A model generated the notes under the pieces. It had not been told where the DNA came from. It did no database searches and was given only the letters and a program-made list of their open reading frames with translations. A DNA stretch of 64,000 nucleotides from Escherichia coli (GTDB taxonomy: Bacteria; Pseudomonadota; Gammaproteobacteria; Enterobacterales; Enterobacteriaceae), in assembly GCF_036507355.1 (NCBI RefSeq), contig NZ_AP027877.1, one strand, 5' to 3'. Below are positions 1 through 64,000 of the stretch, piece by piece. Position 1 is the stretch's first letter, and each line of letters starts with the position of its first letter. Position numbers and translations under genes: made by a program.

Positions 1-643
1 CGCTGGGTACGCCAGTCGCGTTTAGTGGTTTTTCCGAGTCAGGGTCACGCATACGTAGTGCCAGCGCCAGTTTGTTCAGCGGCGCGAGTTCACGACCCAG
101 TAGTACCATCATGATGATTAACATAATCGGCAGTGCGACCAACCACGGGATCAATTGCCCGGCAACAATCGCCAGCGCCATGTCTTCACGGTATTCCCAT
201 TCCTGACCAACAACGATGCGATATTTGCCATCAGGTGAGGTCATCCAGACAAAACGCCATTGATCTTTATCGCCCACCAGTTGCCCGTCAGCAAAACCTT
301 CCCGTTGATAGCTATAGGGAATATCTTCTCCGTTATCGCCATCGTTAAGGACCATTCTGCCGTCGTGGGTAAAGATGGCAAAGGTCAGCGCATCGTCATC
401 AACATGACCGTGTTTTAATTTATTTGGCGTCTGTGCCATGCGATCCGCCGCGTTGATTTCGTTGAGATCGAGCGTACTTAACCGCTTGGCAAACAGCATC
501 AGTTGGGTGTCGAACAATTCATCGACGTTATCCGTTGTTTGTTTCCAGGCGACAAAGCTGGAAAGCAGCCAGGTCACCGAGGCCAGAATTAAAAAGATTA
601 GCGTCAGCCTGACGCGCAGACTAAGACGTTGGGTAAATTTCAT
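1..643 (-). CDS. qseC: Sensor histidine kinase QseC, N-terminal part (gene continues beyond window start)
   Basis: Reverse-strand reading begins [13 protein letters not shown]... from the ATG at 641-643, overlapping the qseB stop (ATGA); matches the QseC N-terminus from memory. Confidence 0.9.
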
Positions 644-12555: not shown

Positions 12556-12754
12556 CTGTTTTTCACCTCTCCGTTGCGTTTATCCCGGATATAGATGAGT
12601 TGTTCTTTTAAGAGCTTCCGGCTCTGCATGATGATGTCCTTATATTTGGTATTCCTGAACAAGGAAGAGTAACAACGGGCGGGACGCGAGGGGAATAAAT
12701 GATTTCTGAAAAGTCCGGTAGCGGAACATTACCGCCACCGGGAGAATTTGCACG

Positions 12755-57850: not shown

Positions 57851-58170
57851 GTCGTTTATCTCGCCAGGGAACCGTTTTTACGATTGGCTTCTTAATACAT
57901 AGTCTCCGTTTTACAATGCAAATTGTTTAATATTTATACGTCTGAGCTTCTGTGCTGGTTATAAAGCACCCACTTTCATGAGATCAATTTTAGTATGTTA
58001 TTACATTGCTACGTCTGTTCTTTTCATGACGAATGGCGTTTTTTCTCTTGTTTGTATTTTTCACGAGAGCAATGAGCAGATCAAAATTCCCAAAAACATA
58101 AGATTATTCGCAATGAATCGCCACGGGTTTAACAGACACCTCAGAGTCATTTAAGATGGCTTAAAGAGAG

Positions 58171-58455
58171 GTGCCCATGAGCGGTAAGCGTTATCCCGAA
58201 GAGTTTAAAATTGAAGCAGTCAAACAGGTTGTTGATCGCGGTTATTCTGTTGCCAGCGTTGCAACACGTCTCGATATCACCACCCACAGCCTTTACGCCT
58301 GGATAAAGAAGTACGGTCCGGATTCTTCCGCTAATAAAGAACAGTCAGATGCTCAGGCCGAGATCCGCCGTCTCCAGAAAGAGCTGAAGCGGGTTACCGA
58401 CGAACGGGACATATTAAAAAAAGCCGCGGCGTACTTCGCAAAGCTGTCCGACTGA
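58171..58455 (+). CDS. IS3-family transposase OrfA (HTH domain)
   Basis: 94-aa ORF MPMSGKRYPEEFKIEAVKQVVDRGYSVASVATRLDITTHSLYAWIKKYG... with leucine-zipper-like C-terminus typical of IS3 OrfA. Confidence 0.9.
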   Translation: MPMSGKRYPEEFKIEAVKQVVDRGYSVASVATRLDITTHSLYAWIKKYGPDSSANKEQSDAQAEIRRLQKELKRVTDERDILKKAAAYFAKLSD

Positions 58456-59324
58456 GGTACGCCTTTATCCGTGACAACACCTGTTGCTGGCCTGTTCGCC
58501 TGCTCTGTCGGGTGCTGGATGTTCATCCCAGTGGTTTTTACGCCTGGCTTCAGCAGCCGCATTCACAACGCCATCAGGCAGACCTGAGGCTGACAGGGCA
58601 GATTAAACAGTTCTGGCTGGAATCGGGATGCGTCTATGGTTATCGCAAAATCCATCTGGATCTGCGGGACAGCGGGCAACAGTGCGGAGTGAACAGAGTC
58701 TGGCGACTGATGAAACGTGTCGGGATAAAGGCTCAGGTCGGATACCGGAGCCCGCGGGCACGTAAAGGCGAGGCCAGTATCGTGTCGCCCAACAGGCTCC
58801 AGCGACAGTTCAATCCGGATGCTCCGGATAAGCGTTGGGTAACGGACATAACCTACATCAGGACCCACGAAGGCTGGCTGTATCTTGCCGTGGTTGTTGA
58901 TCTGTTCTCACGCAAAATTATCGGCTGGTCCATGCAATCCCGGATGACAAAGGACATTGTCCTGAACGCACTGCTGATGGCTGTATGGCGCCGTAATCCC
59001 CAAAAACAGGTGCTGGTTCATTCGGATCAGGGCAGTCAGTACACAAGCCATGAGTGGCAGTCGTTCCTGAAATCACACGGCCTGGAGGGCAGCATGAGCC
59101 GTCGCGGTAACTGCCATGATAATGCGGTTGCAGAAAGCTTTTTCCAGTTGTTGAAACGCGAACGGATAAAGAAAAAGATCTACGGAACGCGGGAAGAAGC
59201 CCGCAGCGATATTTTTGATTACATCGAAATGTTTTATAACAGTAAGCGTCGGCATGGTTCCAGCGATCAGATGTCACCGACAGAATATGAAAACCAGTAT
59301 TATCAACGGCTCGGAAGTGTCTAG
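58416..59324 (+). CDS. IS3-family transposase OrfB (DDE integrase core), expressed as OrfAB fusion by -1 frameshift
   Basis: -1 frame is open from the slippery site; contains WVTDITYIRTHEGWLYLAVVVDLFSRKIIGWSM, HSDQGSQYTS and CHDNAVAESFF DDE-core motifs; the first in-frame ATG is at 58512. Confidence 0.85.
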   Translation, partial: KKSRGVLRKAVRLRYAFIRDNTCCWPVRLLCRVLDVHPSGFYAWLQQPHSQRHQADLRLTGQIKQFWLESGCVYGYRKIHLDLRDSGQQCGVNRVWRLMKRVGIKAQVGYRSPRARKGEASIVSPNRLQRQFNPDAPDKRWVTDITYIRTHEGWLYLAVVVDLFSRKIIGWSMQSRMTKDIVLNALLMAVWRRNPQKQVLVHSDQGSQYTSHEWQSFLKSHGLEGSMSRRGNCHDNAVAESFFQLLKRERIKKKIYGTREEARSDIFDYIEMFYNSKRRHGSSDQMSPTEYENQYYQRLGSV

Positions 59325-59339
59325 ATTACCCGTGGCGAT

Positions 59340-59555
59340 TCAGTCATCAGTAATTACGCTGTCATCCAGTTTCGCATAACAGATACTGTCATCACCGGCT
59401 TCAATATAGCTGGAAAAATTCTCACTGATGAAGCGGTAGAAAAGGGCACCGAGTACATACTGTTTAAAATCCCATCCATCTACGGAGCCTCTGACATCAT
59501 TGGCAATGGCCCAGATTTGGCGGTGTAGCTCTGCACGCTGCTGAAGGCTTGTCAT
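59340..59555 (-). pseudogene. hsdM: Truncated type I restriction-modification methyltransferase (hsdM) N-terminal remnant
   Basis: 71-codon ORF MTSLQQRAELHRQIWAIANDVRGSVDGWDFKQYVLGALFYRFISENFSSYIEAGDDSI... matches the N-terminus of type IC HsdM (EcoR124-like) as I recall it, then runs directly into the IS right end. Confidence 0.7.
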
Positions 59556-59758
59556 TTTGTATCCTGTTGTATGATTCTTAAGTACTGTTATTGGCCCGAT
59601 TTTATCGTAATTTCATATTGATGACAGGCTTTGTATGTCATACGTTGCACTGAGAGTTCGTTTGCCCGGTTGTGTAGGCAGCGCTCTTTCAGCCAGGTCA
59701 GTAGAAACGTTGCGCTGACGATAAATACTGAAGCCCCAATACCATCGGGGCTGAACGT

Positions 59759-61636
59759 TCAGTCGGTGAGAATTTCTTCATCCGTATCCATTGTGGATGG
59801 TGATGAATCTATTTTTGTTGTAAGAAATACCCGATTCAGTAGTCTTTGCTTCAGGGCGTTTCTTCGCTCATTGTAGAACTCCGGGAAGCGACTGAACTCA
59901 ATATTTTCATCTGAAACTAACAGCATTGATGGCGAATAGTTGTTTGATGGCTGAGATAGCCATTGTTTCAGGGAAGTATCCTGTTTACTTATATTCTGAG
60001 AGTGATTCAGTAAATGAAGATTAGGTATGGTGTCCCAGTGCTCCGGATTTTCATAAAAGCTGAGGTTCTCTGGTGTATTCGCAACATAATCTAATTTTTC
60101 AAGATATTTCTTTGAAAAATGATTTCTTGGGTGAAGGTGATCAATATGAAACACCTCGGTCGGATTCATTTCAGGGAACAGAAGATGCAATAGTGCGCGG
60201 CAACGACCTTCGCCATATCTGATATTGAGAAGGCTTTCGATGTATTCGTCGTCAAATCTGAGGTCTTTATTCGAGCCTTTATATCTGTCAATAATCTTCT
60301 CAAGAGGAAAGTGAATATCTGAAAGACTATTTTTCATTACATCTCTGATACTCGTGAGTAGCGCATCTGCCTGGCTTCCAAAGATCCCTTTCAGAAGTAC
60401 CATGTAAAACCACTGGCTAATTACTGAGCGTTCATTGTGGTTTTTATTCAGGAGATTAATCGTTGTATATAATGGATGTCCACTGGTTTGCTTTTTGTAA
60501 AGCCAGTAGACCACAGGAATGACTGCATTTTTAGATATCAAAGACTGTGGATTGATGCCGAATCGCCTGATAAGAATAAAGGTCTCCTTGATACAGGATT
60601 TTATTTCAGACCATTGTTGTTGTATCTTACCGACCTCCTCTGAAGTGAAGTTTTTTACTTTGAACCGGACGTCAGAGTCAATAAGCATCAGGCTGGTTTT
60701 TAAGAACCAGTCTCTTTCAATATAAAAACCCATTTCATTATTCTGATAAATGTTTTTTGTCAGTTCATCCAGTTCTTTTCTGAAATCACCCTGCCAGTGC
60801 GCTACCGCTATTGACATCAGTAAGTCTGAAAACTCAAGTTTTGTCCCCCCGCTGTTCGTGCGGATGAAAACATCCAGCACATGATCAATGTCCTGACTGC
60901 TCTCATTGAAGTAGTGGATAAGATTCTCAGTTCTTATCTTGGTATAAAGTTTAAGCAGAGTTTTTCTGGAAAATTCACTGGAAATGAGATCTCTTTTTTC
61001 AAGTTCTGGTACGACAACGTTAAATAAAATATCATCAGGCGAATCATGTTGCTCGTATTTGAATATTTCGTGCAGGCAGAACCAGTGATGTTTGTTATCG
61101 GCAAGTGAATCAGTATATTGCTTCTCGGTCAGGAACCTGAAGTTATACTTCATCATGAGCTCATCGTCTGACTTAAGTGGCGCGGTTAAATCGACGTAAA
61201 GCTTTCTGGGTGGCAGGATGCGATCATCCTGTGCCGAAGGCCACCACATCCGGGGCTGTTTATACGCATACGTTCCACACAATCCAATATATAATGATGT
61301 GAGACGCTGCTGACCATCAATCACGGCCTTGAAATCATGAAACCCAGCATTTGTTGCTACGCAGGGGTTTTCTTCATTAAATCGCTGACAGTATTCTTTC
61401 AGGAACTCATAGAATTTGTAATCATTTTTAATACTGGCACTACGGATATCCCACATCATGAAAGAGTTTATCGGGTAGTCTCGCATGATGGAATCAAACA
61501 GCAAACATATCTGACTGCTGCTCCAGACGAACTTCCTCTGAATTGCAGGCAGAAGATAGTGGCGTAAATTAATTGAATCTATCGCTTGTTTTATCGTTAT
61601 TGCTTTTTCATACTGGCCAGCCATCATAAACCTCAT
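59759..61636 (-). CDS. DUF262/DUF1524 (GmrSD-like) putative type IV restriction / defence nuclease
   Basis: 625-aa ORF; N-terminal DUF262 signatures (LPAIQRKFVW, LFDSIMRDYPINSF, VIDGQQRLTSLYIGL); C-terminal His-Me/HNH-like DUF1524 region (HIDHLHPRNHF ... NLHLLNHSQN). Confidence 0.8.
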   Translation of the reverse strand: MRFMMAGQYEKAITIKQAIDSINLRHYLLPAIQRKFVWSSSQICLLFDSIMRDYPINSFMMWDIRSASIKNDYKFYEFLKEYCQRFNEENPCVATNAGFHDFKAVIDGQQRLTSLYIGLCGTYAYKQPRMWWPSAQDDRILPPRKLYVDLTAPLKSDDELMMKYNFRFLTEKQYTDSLADNKHHWFCLHEIFKYEQHDSPDDILFNVVVPELEKRDLISSEFSRKTLLKLYTKIRTENLIHYFNESSQDIDHVLDVFIRTNSGGTKLEFSDLLMSIAVAHWQGDFRKELDELTKNIYQNNEMGFYIERDWFLKTSLMLIDSDVRFKVKNFTSEEVGKIQQQWSEIKSCIKETFILIRRFGINPQSLISKNAVIPVVYWLYKKQTSGHPLYTTINLLNKNHNERSVISQWFYMVLLKGIFGSQADALLTSIRDVMKNSLSDIHFPLEKIIDRYKGSNKDLRFDDEYIESLLNIRYGEGRCRALLHLLFPEMNPTEVFHIDHLHPRNHFSKKYLEKLDYVANTPENLSFYENPEHWDTIPNLHLLNHSQNISKQDTSLKQWLSQPSNNYSPSMLLVSDENIEFSRFPEFYNERRNALKQRLLNRVFLTTKIDSSPSTMDTDEEILTD

Positions 61637-61697
61637 ATGTTATATTAGCTGGCCTATTTTAATTTATTGCGTGTCGGTAGTACAGTCTTTGCACAAA

Positions 61698-62027
61698 CTA
61701 ATTTATGCAATGGAAAAGCTGACGGCTCGGTTTGTGTTTTTCATTCGGGTAGACTCGCATTGCGGATGCACAAAGTGATGAAACCTGTCTTGCTATATTT
61801 TTACCGAAGTTAACAAGTAGGCCGTGCTTTATTTTTTCACCCTCTGCCCTGATGCTGATGACAAAGCTGAACTGATATACGATTACCTCAATGAGGTCAT
61901 TGCCAAATGTTATGATGGCGGCGTTGTTTATTTCATATTCATAATCCCTCAGGTCAGTGTTAAGTCTTGCTGTTGCATTTACAAGTGCGTATTCTTTATC
62001 GATAATCATAACTTTCTCACTTATCAT
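61698..62027 (-). CDS. Hypothetical small protein (109 aa)
   Basis: ORF with ATG start between the WYL regulator and the DUF262/DUF1524 gene on the same strand; no recognisable motif. Confidence 0.45.
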   Translation of the reverse strand: MISEKVMIIDKEYALVNATARLNTDLRDYEYEINNAAIITFGNDLIEVIVYQFSFVISIRAEGEKIKHGLLVNFGKNIARQVSSLCASAMRVYPNEKHKPSRQLFHCIN

Positions 62028-62067
62028 GTTAATGTGATTTAATCATCACTAATAATATGTTGTGATT

Positions 62068-62781
62068 TTAATTACGATTATTCGTCTGTTTACTCCCGTA
62101 ATGCATTATCTGATGAATAATGTTCATGTGGGGTAAGGCTTCCATAAAGTCAGACTGTTCAATCAGCGAAATGAGTGTGTTATCGATCTCAAACGTTGTA
62201 TCCGGTAATACCTCAACCAGCCTGATTCGGGACAGGGAAATAACGAACACGCCCGATGACGTACATCCGGCAAGAAACCACTCCGCATGGCTGCAAAGCA
62301 GACGATAGGGATGAACGGTATGGCTGACGTTTTCGTCGGTTCTGATACGCACCTTGGTCTGGTTAAGTATGGCGAGCGTTAGTCTGCTGAAATCACCGAA
62401 CAGCGTGGGTTTCTGGCGCGGCTCCGGGAGCATAATCCGGTAGGGTGAAGGGTGCTCCCCGTCAAGCAGAAGGCTCAGCAGTTTGGCATCCATCGCGGGT
62501 AACAGACGGTCAAGATGCAGCAGTCTCGCCAGTATCTTCATATCTCGTTCCGTGCGGCGACGAAAGTAATGTGAGGCAAGCTGATACACGCCGTTGCTCT
62601 GTTCAATATCAAGGTAGGTCAGACGGACGTTGAAATCCCGCCGCAGCGTTCGCGTTGTCACTCCAAATTCTTCTGCCAGCGTCCCGATATGCAGCTTTTC
62701 ACCCTGAAACAAACGGCTCAGGATGATGGAAAGGCGGGTTGCCAGTCTGTCATGTTCGTTTTCTTGTGTTATCAGCGTCAT
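62068..62781 (-). CDS. WYL-domain transcriptional regulator (HTH + WYL), BrxR/CapW-like
   Basis: 237-aa ORF; N-terminal HTH (IGTLAEEFGVTTRTLRRDF); central W[YF]L-type region (HPYRLLCSHAEWFLAGCTSSGVFVISLSRIRLVEVL). Confidence 0.7.
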   Translation of the reverse strand: MTLITQENEHDRLATRLSIILSRLFQGEKLHIGTLAEEFGVTTRTLRRDFNVRLTYLDIEQSNGVYQLASHYFRRRTERDMKILARLLHLDRLLPAMDAKLLSLLLDGEHPSPYRIMLPEPRQKPTLFGDFSRLTLAILNQTKVRIRTDENVSHTVHPYRLLCSHAEWFLAGCTSSGVFVISLSRIRLVEVLPDTTFEIDNTLISLIEQSDFMEALPHMNIIHQIMHYGSKQTNNRN

Positions 62782-62883
62782 ACATCATTTCCGAATTTAG
62801 CCGGGAAATGATGCCAGCAGTAGCGGACAGGATTTGTCCACCCTCTGAAGTTTTTTAAAGTCTGAATACCTTAAATGTAAGTG

Positions 62884-63633
62884 CTAAACGTCAGTATTCT
62901 CAGGTGAATAAAGATGCTTCTGGCGCATGTAGGCAATAAAAATGCAGGATGGTAGCGTCACCCGGTATGCGGGACCGGCTAAATCAATCAGCAGCCAGAG
63001 AGAACTGAGCACCCAGCCCACAGGACCGGCAAAAGCGCCCATGGTACGCGTCAGCATGGCATTTCCTGCAACGGTCAGCCCTCTGCCTAACAGGGCTTTC
63101 GCCACACCATTTGTGACAACAAGTGCCATCTGATAGGCCGCAAACCCGGATGTTTTTATCCCCGCCTGGATTGCCATGGTCAGCAACTCCGGCGTGGGGT
63201 TGCTGTAGCCTGTCTGCAATTCTTCCGCCACGGTCTTTAACTGATCGGGCGTCATCTTCTCAAGGCTTTTCTCCAGGATCTTCATCAGCAGATTCATTTC
63301 AATGGTTTCAACACTGGATTTGTTGTTGTAGTTCACCTTCATTTTATCGCAGGCATCGGTGAGAATTTCCCGGTACGGCACCCCTTTACCCCAGCGGAGC
63401 AGCGTGGCAAAGCTGTTCGCCCCAAACGTCTGAACCTCGGCGGCAATGGCATCCCAGTAGCGCGGGTGGTTGGGCTTGTGTTTTTTATACTGAGGATCAT
63501 AGGTCAGCGTTTCCGTGATGCGTGCCAGTCCGTCTTTCGGATCGCAGATAAGCACAGAAACCAGTAAATCCAGATCGTCACGATGGCAGTGGCGCAGAAA
63601 CTCAAGGTCGGGGTCGTGTCGGTAGGTAGCCAT
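62884..63633 (-). CDS. Hypothetical protein, possibly YaaW-like (UPF0174/DUF3944)
   Basis: 249-aa ORF; acidic N-terminal DDLDLLVSVL region and glycine-rich hydrophobic C-terminus (GAFAGPVGWVLSSLWLLIDLAGPAY); family assignment from memory, low certainty. Confidence 0.4.
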   Translation of the reverse strand: MATYRHDPDLEFLRHCHRDDLDLLVSVLICDPKDGLARITETLTYDPQYKKHKPNHPRYWDAIAAEVQTFGANSFATLLRWGKGVPYREILTDACDKMKVNYNNKSSVETIEMNLLMKILEKSLEKMTPDQLKTVAEELQTGYSNPTPELLTMAIQAGIKTSGFAAYQMALVVTNGVAKALLGRGLTVAGNAMLTRTMGAFAGPVGWVLSSLWLLIDLAGPAYRVTLPSCIFIAYMRQKHLYSPENTDV

Positions 63634-63707
63634 ATTTCACCTCATTGCAGATATTGGACCTGACAGTTTAAGGAAGCCACCGGACAGGGCTTGTCCGCCT
63701 GAAAAAC

Positions 63708-63745
63708 AAAAAAGTAAAAAAAACCTGCCGAAAGCAGGTTTCTGT
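63708..63745 (-). terminator. Rho-independent terminator for the partial minus-strand gene at the window end
   Basis: Hairpin AACCTGC-CGAAA-GCAGGTT; on the minus strand it is followed by a T-rich run (plus-strand AAAAAACAAAAAAGTAAAAAAA). Confidence 0.55.
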
Positions 63746-63776
63746 TCACCGGATGGAGGTATAACGCGTCGGGATT

Positions 63777-64000
63777 ACTTTCCGCGCCATTCCTTTTCCA
63801 CTTTATCCGCAAAAGCATCGCACTGCCGGGCATATTCCGGGTTATAGAGCAGCTCCGACTGCGAAAGCTGCATGGCGGTCATGCTGCCGTTACGGGCATT
63901 TGATTCGAGCCAGGTTCTGCCATAGGTTTTGTTCATCACCTGAAGTACCCGGTTGAATACCGGTCCGTTGAAGCGGGCATTGAGATTAACGCCTTTTACC
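63777..64000 (-). CDS. Partial CDS (C-terminal 74 codons), unknown product; gene continues beyond window end
   Basis: Open minus-strand frame ending ...VLQVMNKTYGRTWLESNARNGSMTAMQLSQSELLYNPEYARQCDAFADKVEKEWRGK then TAA at 63777-63779, followed by the terminator. Confidence 0.55.

Follow-up and report, generated by a model that had tools for sequence, protein, structure and literature searches.

Within a 64,000-nucleotide stretch of Escherichia coli DNA (contig NZ_AP027877.1), hereafter the window, the minus strand carries close to the end of the stretch a jukA-like gene whose 249-aa product, to judge from its sequence, almost certainly belongs to the YaaW/JukA family. The gene and that of a YfjR-family regulator, which combines a helix-turn-helix (HTH) domain with a WYL domain, form a two-gene module borne by a mobile genomic island. 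On balance, it is somewhat more likely than not that the jukA-like gene encodes a JukA-type sensor that is controlled by the WYL regulator, is encoded without JukB, and would block early infection by nucleus-forming jumbo phages. The gene itself is an ordinary JukA homologue, already catalogued and not new, and the operator shared by the two genes, together with the link to YfjR, is a modest new detail.

In the preprint describing Juk, the jumbo phage killer system of Pseudomonas aeruginosa PA14 (Li et al. 2022, bioRxiv, doi 10.1101/2022.09.17.508391), the YaaW family received the name JukA, a functional identity which the first-pass annotation had missed. JukA, the sensor of this system, goes to the point where phiKZ injects and brings in JukB, the effector, and the infection halts ahead of early transcription (Li et al. 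2022). The commonest defence-associated genes identified near jukA were WYL genes and components of restriction–modification (R-M) systems (Li et al. 2022), and the window gene resembles this description of the family in its defence-island setting, with a DUF262 gene of the candidate defence system HEC-05 and a type I R-M gene nearby in addition to the WYL regulator. Some JukAs, from Escherichia (Jo6, WP_121372120.1), Janthinobacterium (Jo11) and Vibrio (Jo3), protect alone, and phiKZ was arrested by them without DNA degradation (Li et al. 2022). The window locus shares with all three the lack of a recognisable effector and, with Jo6 and Jo11, which each pair jukA with an HTH regulator gene of the XRE type, the presence of a neighbouring transcription factor. 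It differs from the synthesised Jo6 and Jo11 constructs in gene order and regulator type: there the XRE-type gene comes first, whereas in the window a YfjR-family regulator with a DeoR-type HTH and a WYL domain lies downstream and has its own copy of the operator. According to a 2026 review, JukA is found in over 20% of Gram-negatives and senses infection in a manner described by an early phage infection (EPI) vesicle model.

The open reading frame (ORF), which the first-pass annotation had placed at exactly the coordinates found here, with no strand given, is a genuine conserved gene and no chance frame, since it has 743 homologues at E<=1e-5 (with 53-99% identity among the 120 matches listed) and since all 26 residues that are invariant in an alignment of 36 sequences (alignment A2) are kept in its product. 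It starts with ATG and has a GC content of 0.53, and of 0.63 at third codon positions (GC3). The earlier family guess, UPF0174/DUF3944 and YaaW-like, proved sound: Pfam matches DUF3944 (PF13099; E=2.1e-9; 37.5 bits, cut-off 24) and PF03981 (E=2.3e-8; 34.7 bits, cut-off 21.5) in the window protein, both domains are present in all 36 aligned homologues, and RefSeq names the gene 'YaaW family protein' or 'DUF3944 domain-containing protein'. The JukA models of PADLOC match the protein over its full length (PDLC04113, E=6e-72; PDLC04111, E=8e-70). In addition, 246 of its 249 residues are identical in WP_064670466.1, from the same position of the same island in E. coli 1916D18; because the authors include this 99% identical protein in their table of JukA homologues (sheet 'JukA_accessions'; Li et al. 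2022), the window gene is already catalogued. On viral contigs, only 4 homologue loci were found, with 53-54% identity. A separate arrangement was seen in a metagenomic genome (locus L012, 6759-7628), in which an unannotated 288-aa gene comes after that of a JukA homologue, and next to it is encoded a 289-aa protein with a second JukA-like domain as its C-terminal half (PADLOC JukA, E=9e-22, residues 122-285), that is, a tandem or divergent JukA arrangement.

The K-12 namesake of the family, YaaW (b0011, UPF0174), has the same Pfam architecture and a similar length (237 aa), and it is annotated as a 'putative enzyme-specific chaperone', PF03981 being a ubiquinol-cytochrome c chaperone family that matches the window protein at E=2e-8. 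The window gene could thus be a housekeeping chaperone of the YaaW type that chances to ride on an island, which we consider very unlikely. The end-to-end alignment of the two proteins gives 27% identity, and the NCBIfam equivalog model NF007593 gives the window protein 89.8 bits against a cut-off of 395, so that orthology with K-12 YaaW was rejected and the gene is a distant paralogue of yaaW. K-12 yaaW is a core gene beside yaaI (DUF2541), satP and dnaK and contains the antisense gene mbiA, whereas the window gene is island-borne and accessory and yaaI/DUF2541 is not adjacent to it; the longest ORF antisense to it has 79 aa. Only 133 of 5426 complete E. coli genomes (2.5%) carry it, inside an integrase-bearing island, which agrees with the accessory-island membership proposed earlier, and its 98-100% identity across genera points to recent horizontal transfer. 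Furthermore, no gene for a client enzyme lies nearby, and the chaperone label is itself a prediction derived from Pfam.

The residues on which PA14 JukA depends for localisation and immunity are NS66-67, RK73-74, Y79, E104 and the region 161-214, deletion of which abolishes both localisation and immunity (Li et al. 2022). By spacing, with a one-residue insertion allowed, N73/S74, R80, Y87 and E112 of the window protein fit NS66-67, R73, Y79 and E104 of PA14 JukA, a mapping which relies on spacing and on other validated homologues and not on an alignment with PA14 JukA itself; the position equivalent to K74 is, again by spacing, W81. R80, Y87 and E112 are among the residues invariant in A2, and N73, S74 and the hydrophobic region are also present. 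The window protein is comparable to PA14 JukA (PA14_03360, WP_003137196.1) in family (YaaW/DUF3944), size, core motif as judged by spacing, and hydrophobic C-terminal region. Tested homologues were compared through translation of the partial sequences in Table 4 of the preprint (Li et al. 2022). The motif FG-x-N-S/T...R...G-x-x-Y-x-E...IE is common to the window protein and seven JukA homologues from immunity-giving operons, and Rhodospirillum Jo23, a tested homologue that gave immunity with JukB, is 44% identical to the window protein.

The C-terminus had been described earlier as hydrophobic and glycine-rich, and this holds: the last 99 residues include 10 Gly and 14 Ala, 61% of them are hydrophobic or Gly, and the Kyte-Doolittle maximum is 1.53. 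The N-terminus, described as acidic, is charged and only mildly acidic (residues 1-60 contain 10 D/E, 9 K/R and 5 His). The AlphaFold2 (AF2) model is all-alpha with a predicted local distance difference test (pLDDT) score of 81, and its confidence is lowest at residues 181-220 (pLDDT 55-68). These properties bear on the possibility that the protein is sensor and effector in one, its Gly/Ala-rich helical hairpin inserting into, and damaging, the early-infection vesicle or the inner membrane, so that JukB would not be needed. Such a role is in keeping with a borderline transmembrane hydropathy maximum, with a low-confidence segment of the model that may be what is expected of a conformation-changing region, with the effect of the 161-214 deletion in PA14 and with the JukAs that protect alone; a faint resemblance to alpha-pore-forming toxins of the ClyA type points the same way. 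Nevertheless, none of the structural or Pfam similarities is significant (Foldseek E 0.5-1.6; Pfam HlyE E 0.05 in 2 of the 36 aligned members), PA14 JukA is diffuse in the cytoplasm and insufficient without JukB (Li et al. 2022), and the 2026 review ascribes pore formation to JukB, not to JukA. We therefore regard a self-sufficient membrane-damaging protein as unlikely.

The partner of the jukA-like gene is the regulator that the first-pass annotation had noted as its downstream flank, 102 bp away, with a terminator on the upstream side; both flanks were correctly described. In Pfam the regulator matches HTH_DeoR (E=2e-6) and, just above the threshold, WYL (E=2e-4; 21.9 bits, cut-off 21.8), and it matches the WYL model of PADLOC at E=4e-15. 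It is 37% identical to K-12 YfjR (E=4e-39), with which it shares the HTH_DeoR and WYL architecture. WYL regulators of defence loci include BrxR and CapW, and regulators of the BrxR type are longer than the 237 aa found here. The association was followed in a scan of the closest species-level homologues, in which one genome per species yielded 80 loci: in 31 of them (about 40%), all from Enterobacterales or Gilliamella, jukA is followed on the same strand, after 32-109 bp, by a homologue of the regulator. In Edwardsiella, the JukA homologue is 82% and the regulator 59% identical to its window counterpart, and in Rouxiella, where the pair sits in a different type of island, the figures are 64% and 40%.

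The palindrome GGACA-N5-TGTCC occurs twice in the 64-kb window, against 0.05 occurrences expected, once in the 5' region of the jukA-like gene and once in that of the regulator gene. Both sites are kept in Edwardsiella, and a single 5' site is kept in Rouxiella. With at most one mismatch allowed and within 200 bp upstream of jukA, the palindrome was found in 20 of the 31 regulator-linked loci and in none of 49 others (Fisher p=2e-11); its relaxed core ACAnnnCCTGTC lies upstream of jukA in 19 of the 31 and in none of 48 others, and the remaining regulator-linked loci have variants of the palindrome such as CAYACCCTGTC. The locus combines two marks of a WYL-regulated defence module, an adjacent HTH and WYL regulator and an inverted repeat that co-varies with the presence of that regulator. 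The 5' region of K-12 yfjR, in which no jukA stands between operator and regulator gene, contains the palindrome GGACACCACCTGTCC and the variant GTCCATACCCTGTCC (locus L099, 12516-12530 and ~12628-12642), which suggests a family-wide YfjR operator, apparently not described before. The regulator would, on this evidence, control both jukA and itself through the putative operator. Since a terminator-like hairpin, predicted to insulate jukA from transcription of the upstream gene, lies just upstream, jukA should have a promoter of its own within the ~85-bp gap that holds the palindrome. A 79-aa DeoR-type HTH protein is encoded two genes upstream of jukA, just past the window end, in the corresponding locus of strain GPEC1189 (L001, 22236-22475, minus strand) and weakly matches the N-terminus of the same PADLOC WYL model (E=3e-6); apparently an HTH-only relative of the WYL regulator, it could compete for the same palindrome. 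The WYL regulator is favoured as the binder because it, unlike the 79-aa protein, is present in all 31 loci.

Every one of the 31 linked regulators is a homologue (30-45% identity) of YfjR, which is encoded in the cryptic K-12 prophage CP4-57, and YfjQ/DUF932, a backbone gene of CP4-57, lies within 4 kb in 14 of the 31 loci. These counts also favour the main rival explanation, namely that the jukA-like gene belongs to island biology, as part of a YfjR regulon, and is not a phage sensor. The jukA-like and yfjR-like genes would then form a backbone module of CP4-57-type and pheV-type integrative islands, with a role in maintenance, in the exclusion of competing mobile elements or in host physiology, and only guilt by association would tie the module to defence. 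The position of the Rouxiella pair between DUF932 and YfjT, RadC and CbtA is in line with such a backbone function, as is that of the E. coli and Edwardsiella pairs in a conserved block beside variable R-M cargo; K-12 YfjR, moreover, is listed by genomic systematic evolution of ligands by exponential enrichment (gSELEX) as a single-target regulator of only its own operon. Against an island-bound role stands the immunity that members from six other genera gave with JukB, and three more gave alone, without island context (Li et al. 2022). The family also extends over several phyla at 50-60% identity, in widely differing contexts, as would suit a self-contained function. We consider this explanation rather unlikely, albeit the foremost of the alternatives. 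An EcsC-like protein is encoded upstream of the Rouxiella jukA (L006, 4437-5060) and matches the PADLOC candidate PDC-S29 (E=2e-56).

The reading that we prefer, a WYL-controlled JukA-type sensor without JukB, can be set out as a sequence of predicted events. The WYL regulator would bind GGACA-N5-TGTCC and set the expression of jukA as well as its own, as an autoregulated unit like K-12 yfjR. Upon injection by a nucleus-forming jumbo phage of the Chimalliviridae type, the JukA-like protein would move from the cytoplasm to the site of entry, probably carried there by its Gly/Ala-rich hydrophobic C-terminal helices, a localising role proposed because PA14 JukA without residues 161-214 loses localisation together with immunity. 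At the entry site it may recognise phage proteins, either ejected or early ones, on the early-infection vesicle, and infection would be arrested before phage transcription and assembly of the nucleus. The protein could act alone, as the Escherichia, Janthinobacterium and Vibrio JukAs do, or with an effector encoded elsewhere.

Several observations weigh against this reading. As for the effector, PADLOC found no JukB among 16 island proteins (12 of the pheV-type island, comprising 3 from the window and 9 from relatives' copies, and 4 of GPEC1189), nor any other recognisable effector adjoining the jukA-like gene in the same set; the two-gene JukAB arrangement, with jukB in the same operon or locus, is therefore absent from these proteins, and the partner gene, unlike that in PA14, is a WYL regulator. 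As for function, K-12 YaaW, which stands in a housekeeping context, is likewise matched by the JukA models of PADLOC (E=1e-57), and such a match therefore shows that a protein belongs to the family, not that it acts in defence. No more than 10 of the 17 juk operons tested were protective (Li et al. 2022), and the regulator-linked subtype of the window gene is not among the 17. The nearest tested homologues, Jo24 (47% identity) and Jo1 (44%), as compared over the N-terminal ~120 aa, failed to protect PAO1 from Pseudomonas phages, and immunity given by the window clade is a prediction. Some homologues that are just as close have ribosomal-protein or metabolic genes as neighbours. As for regulation, a simple scan found no sigma-70 promoter upstream of jukA on the minus strand, and the literature on YfjR is thin and conflicting, gSELEX reporting autoregulation and chromatin immunoprecipitation with exonuclease digestion (ChIP-exo) seeing no YfjR binding in K-12.

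The features of the locus are collected in Table 1.

Table 1. Features of the jukA-like locus and its surroundings in the window (L001 is the corresponding locus of E. coli GPEC1189)
Feature	Position	Strand	Basis or remark
Insertion sequence (IS), IS3 family, 1229 bp	58114-59342	plus	38-nt imperfect inverted repeats; HTH_Tnp_1 and rve ORFs
hsdM remnant (type I R-M), first 71 aa	59340-59555	minus	HsdM_N, E=5e-9
DUF262/GmrSD-N protein, PADLOC candidate HEC-05	59759-61636	minus	GmrSD_N, E=2e-33 (Pfam); HEC-05, E=5e-231
Small conserved hypothetical ORF downstream of regulator, 109 aa (103 aa in RefSeq)	61698-62027	minus	ORF list, RefSeq
HTH(DeoR-type)+WYL regulator, YfjR/YafY family, 237 aa	62068-62781	minus	Pfam HTH_DeoR and WYL; PADLOC WYL
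Palindrome GGACA-N5-TGTCC, putative operator 2	62825-62839	unstranded	43 nt upstream of regulator ATG
jukA-like (YaaW-family) coding sequence, 249 aa	62884-63633	minus	ORF list, Pfam, PADLOC
Domain layout of jukA-like product	residues 4-38; 58-228; ~148-242		DUF3944; PF03981-like; Gly/Ala-rich hydrophobic helices
Shine-Dalgarno GAGGT of jukA-like gene	63639-63643	minus	read from sequence; 5 nt to ATG
Palindrome GGACA-N5-TGTCC, putative operator 1	63682-63696	unstranded	48 nt upstream of jukA-like ATG
Intrinsic-terminator-like hairpin and T-run, 11-bp stem, ending the upstream 128-aa gene	63719-63743	minus	terminator scan
3' part of 128-aa conserved hypothetical gene, cut by window end	63775-64000	minus	RefSeq coding sequence in L001, 21775-22161

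The core genes of the window up to glcA match those of E. coli LR-50. In LR-50 and in 1916D18, both of which have the same glc-side chromosomal context as the window, the island is bounded by the glc/yghD side and by tRNA-Phe (pheV), and it runs ~9.7 kb beyond the jukA-like gene, through the 128-aa ORF, a DeoR-type HTH gene, LRAT, DUF2787, two hypothetical genes, an integrase, DUF927 and a second integrase, to tRNA-Phe. The first-pass annotation had put the gene at the distal end of the island; since the island continues in these relatives, that position is an artefact of the window edge, and the gene is mid-island. The block formed by the jukA-like gene, the WYL regulator, the 109-aa ORF, the DUF262 gene and the start of hsdM is 99.8% identical in GPEC1189 (window 59343-64000 against L001 17344-22000), where it sits in a ~31-kb island inserted in frvX, not at pheV, and the block therefore moves between island types. 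The jukA-like protein is 100% identical in Pseudocitrobacter vendiensis (L019) and Buttiauxella warmboldiae (L020) and 98% identical in Enterobacter species and Silvania (L021-L025), with the same flanking genes, which is evidence that this island segment passed between genera very recently.

The inner edge of the island in the window is marked by the IS3-family element, which truncates hsdM; hsdS and hsdR are gone, and the full hsdMSR set is present in GPEC1189. With hsdM cut to 71 aa and its partners missing, the type I R-M system of the island is dead in this strain. Such erosion raises the question of whether the jukA-like gene is likewise a decaying, non-functional passenger. The GPEC1189 copy has a 1-bp deletion (one C) at the position corresponding to window 62995, which shortens the product to 214 aa, as annotated in RefSeq, and which may be a true inactivation or an assembly error. 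The window ORF, in contrast, is full length, with a good ribosome-binding site and every one of the family-invariant residues, and intact copies from seven other species match it at 98-100% identity; decay of the window gene is highly improbable.

The remaining neighbours are cargo or belong to a narrow clade. The DUF262/HEC-05 gene is neighbouring defence cargo outside the jukA-wyl pair; Pfam sees only the N-terminal domain of its product, the C-terminus has His-rich HNH-like motifs, and HEC-05 is a candidate single-gene defence system. The 128-aa gene is conserved only in the clade with a JukA identity of at least 73%, and the 109-aa ORF is co-conserved only in a close clade (L019-L026); neither has a family match in Pfam or PADLOC, and both were rejected as general partners of jukA. 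In the GPEC1189 island, a '5'-nucleotidase' (L001, 9881-10858) matches the PADLOC candidate PDC-S08 (E=8e-126).

Placing an 'uncharacterised YaaW-like' ORF in the published defence family JukA adds little new biology in itself. Its by-product is a regulatory hypothesis, in which a palindrome ties jukA to a WYL regulator of the YfjR family in about 40% of the closest species-level homologues. If this is true, the shared operator would explain how jukA genes without JukB are controlled, as well as the role of YfjR-type regulators.

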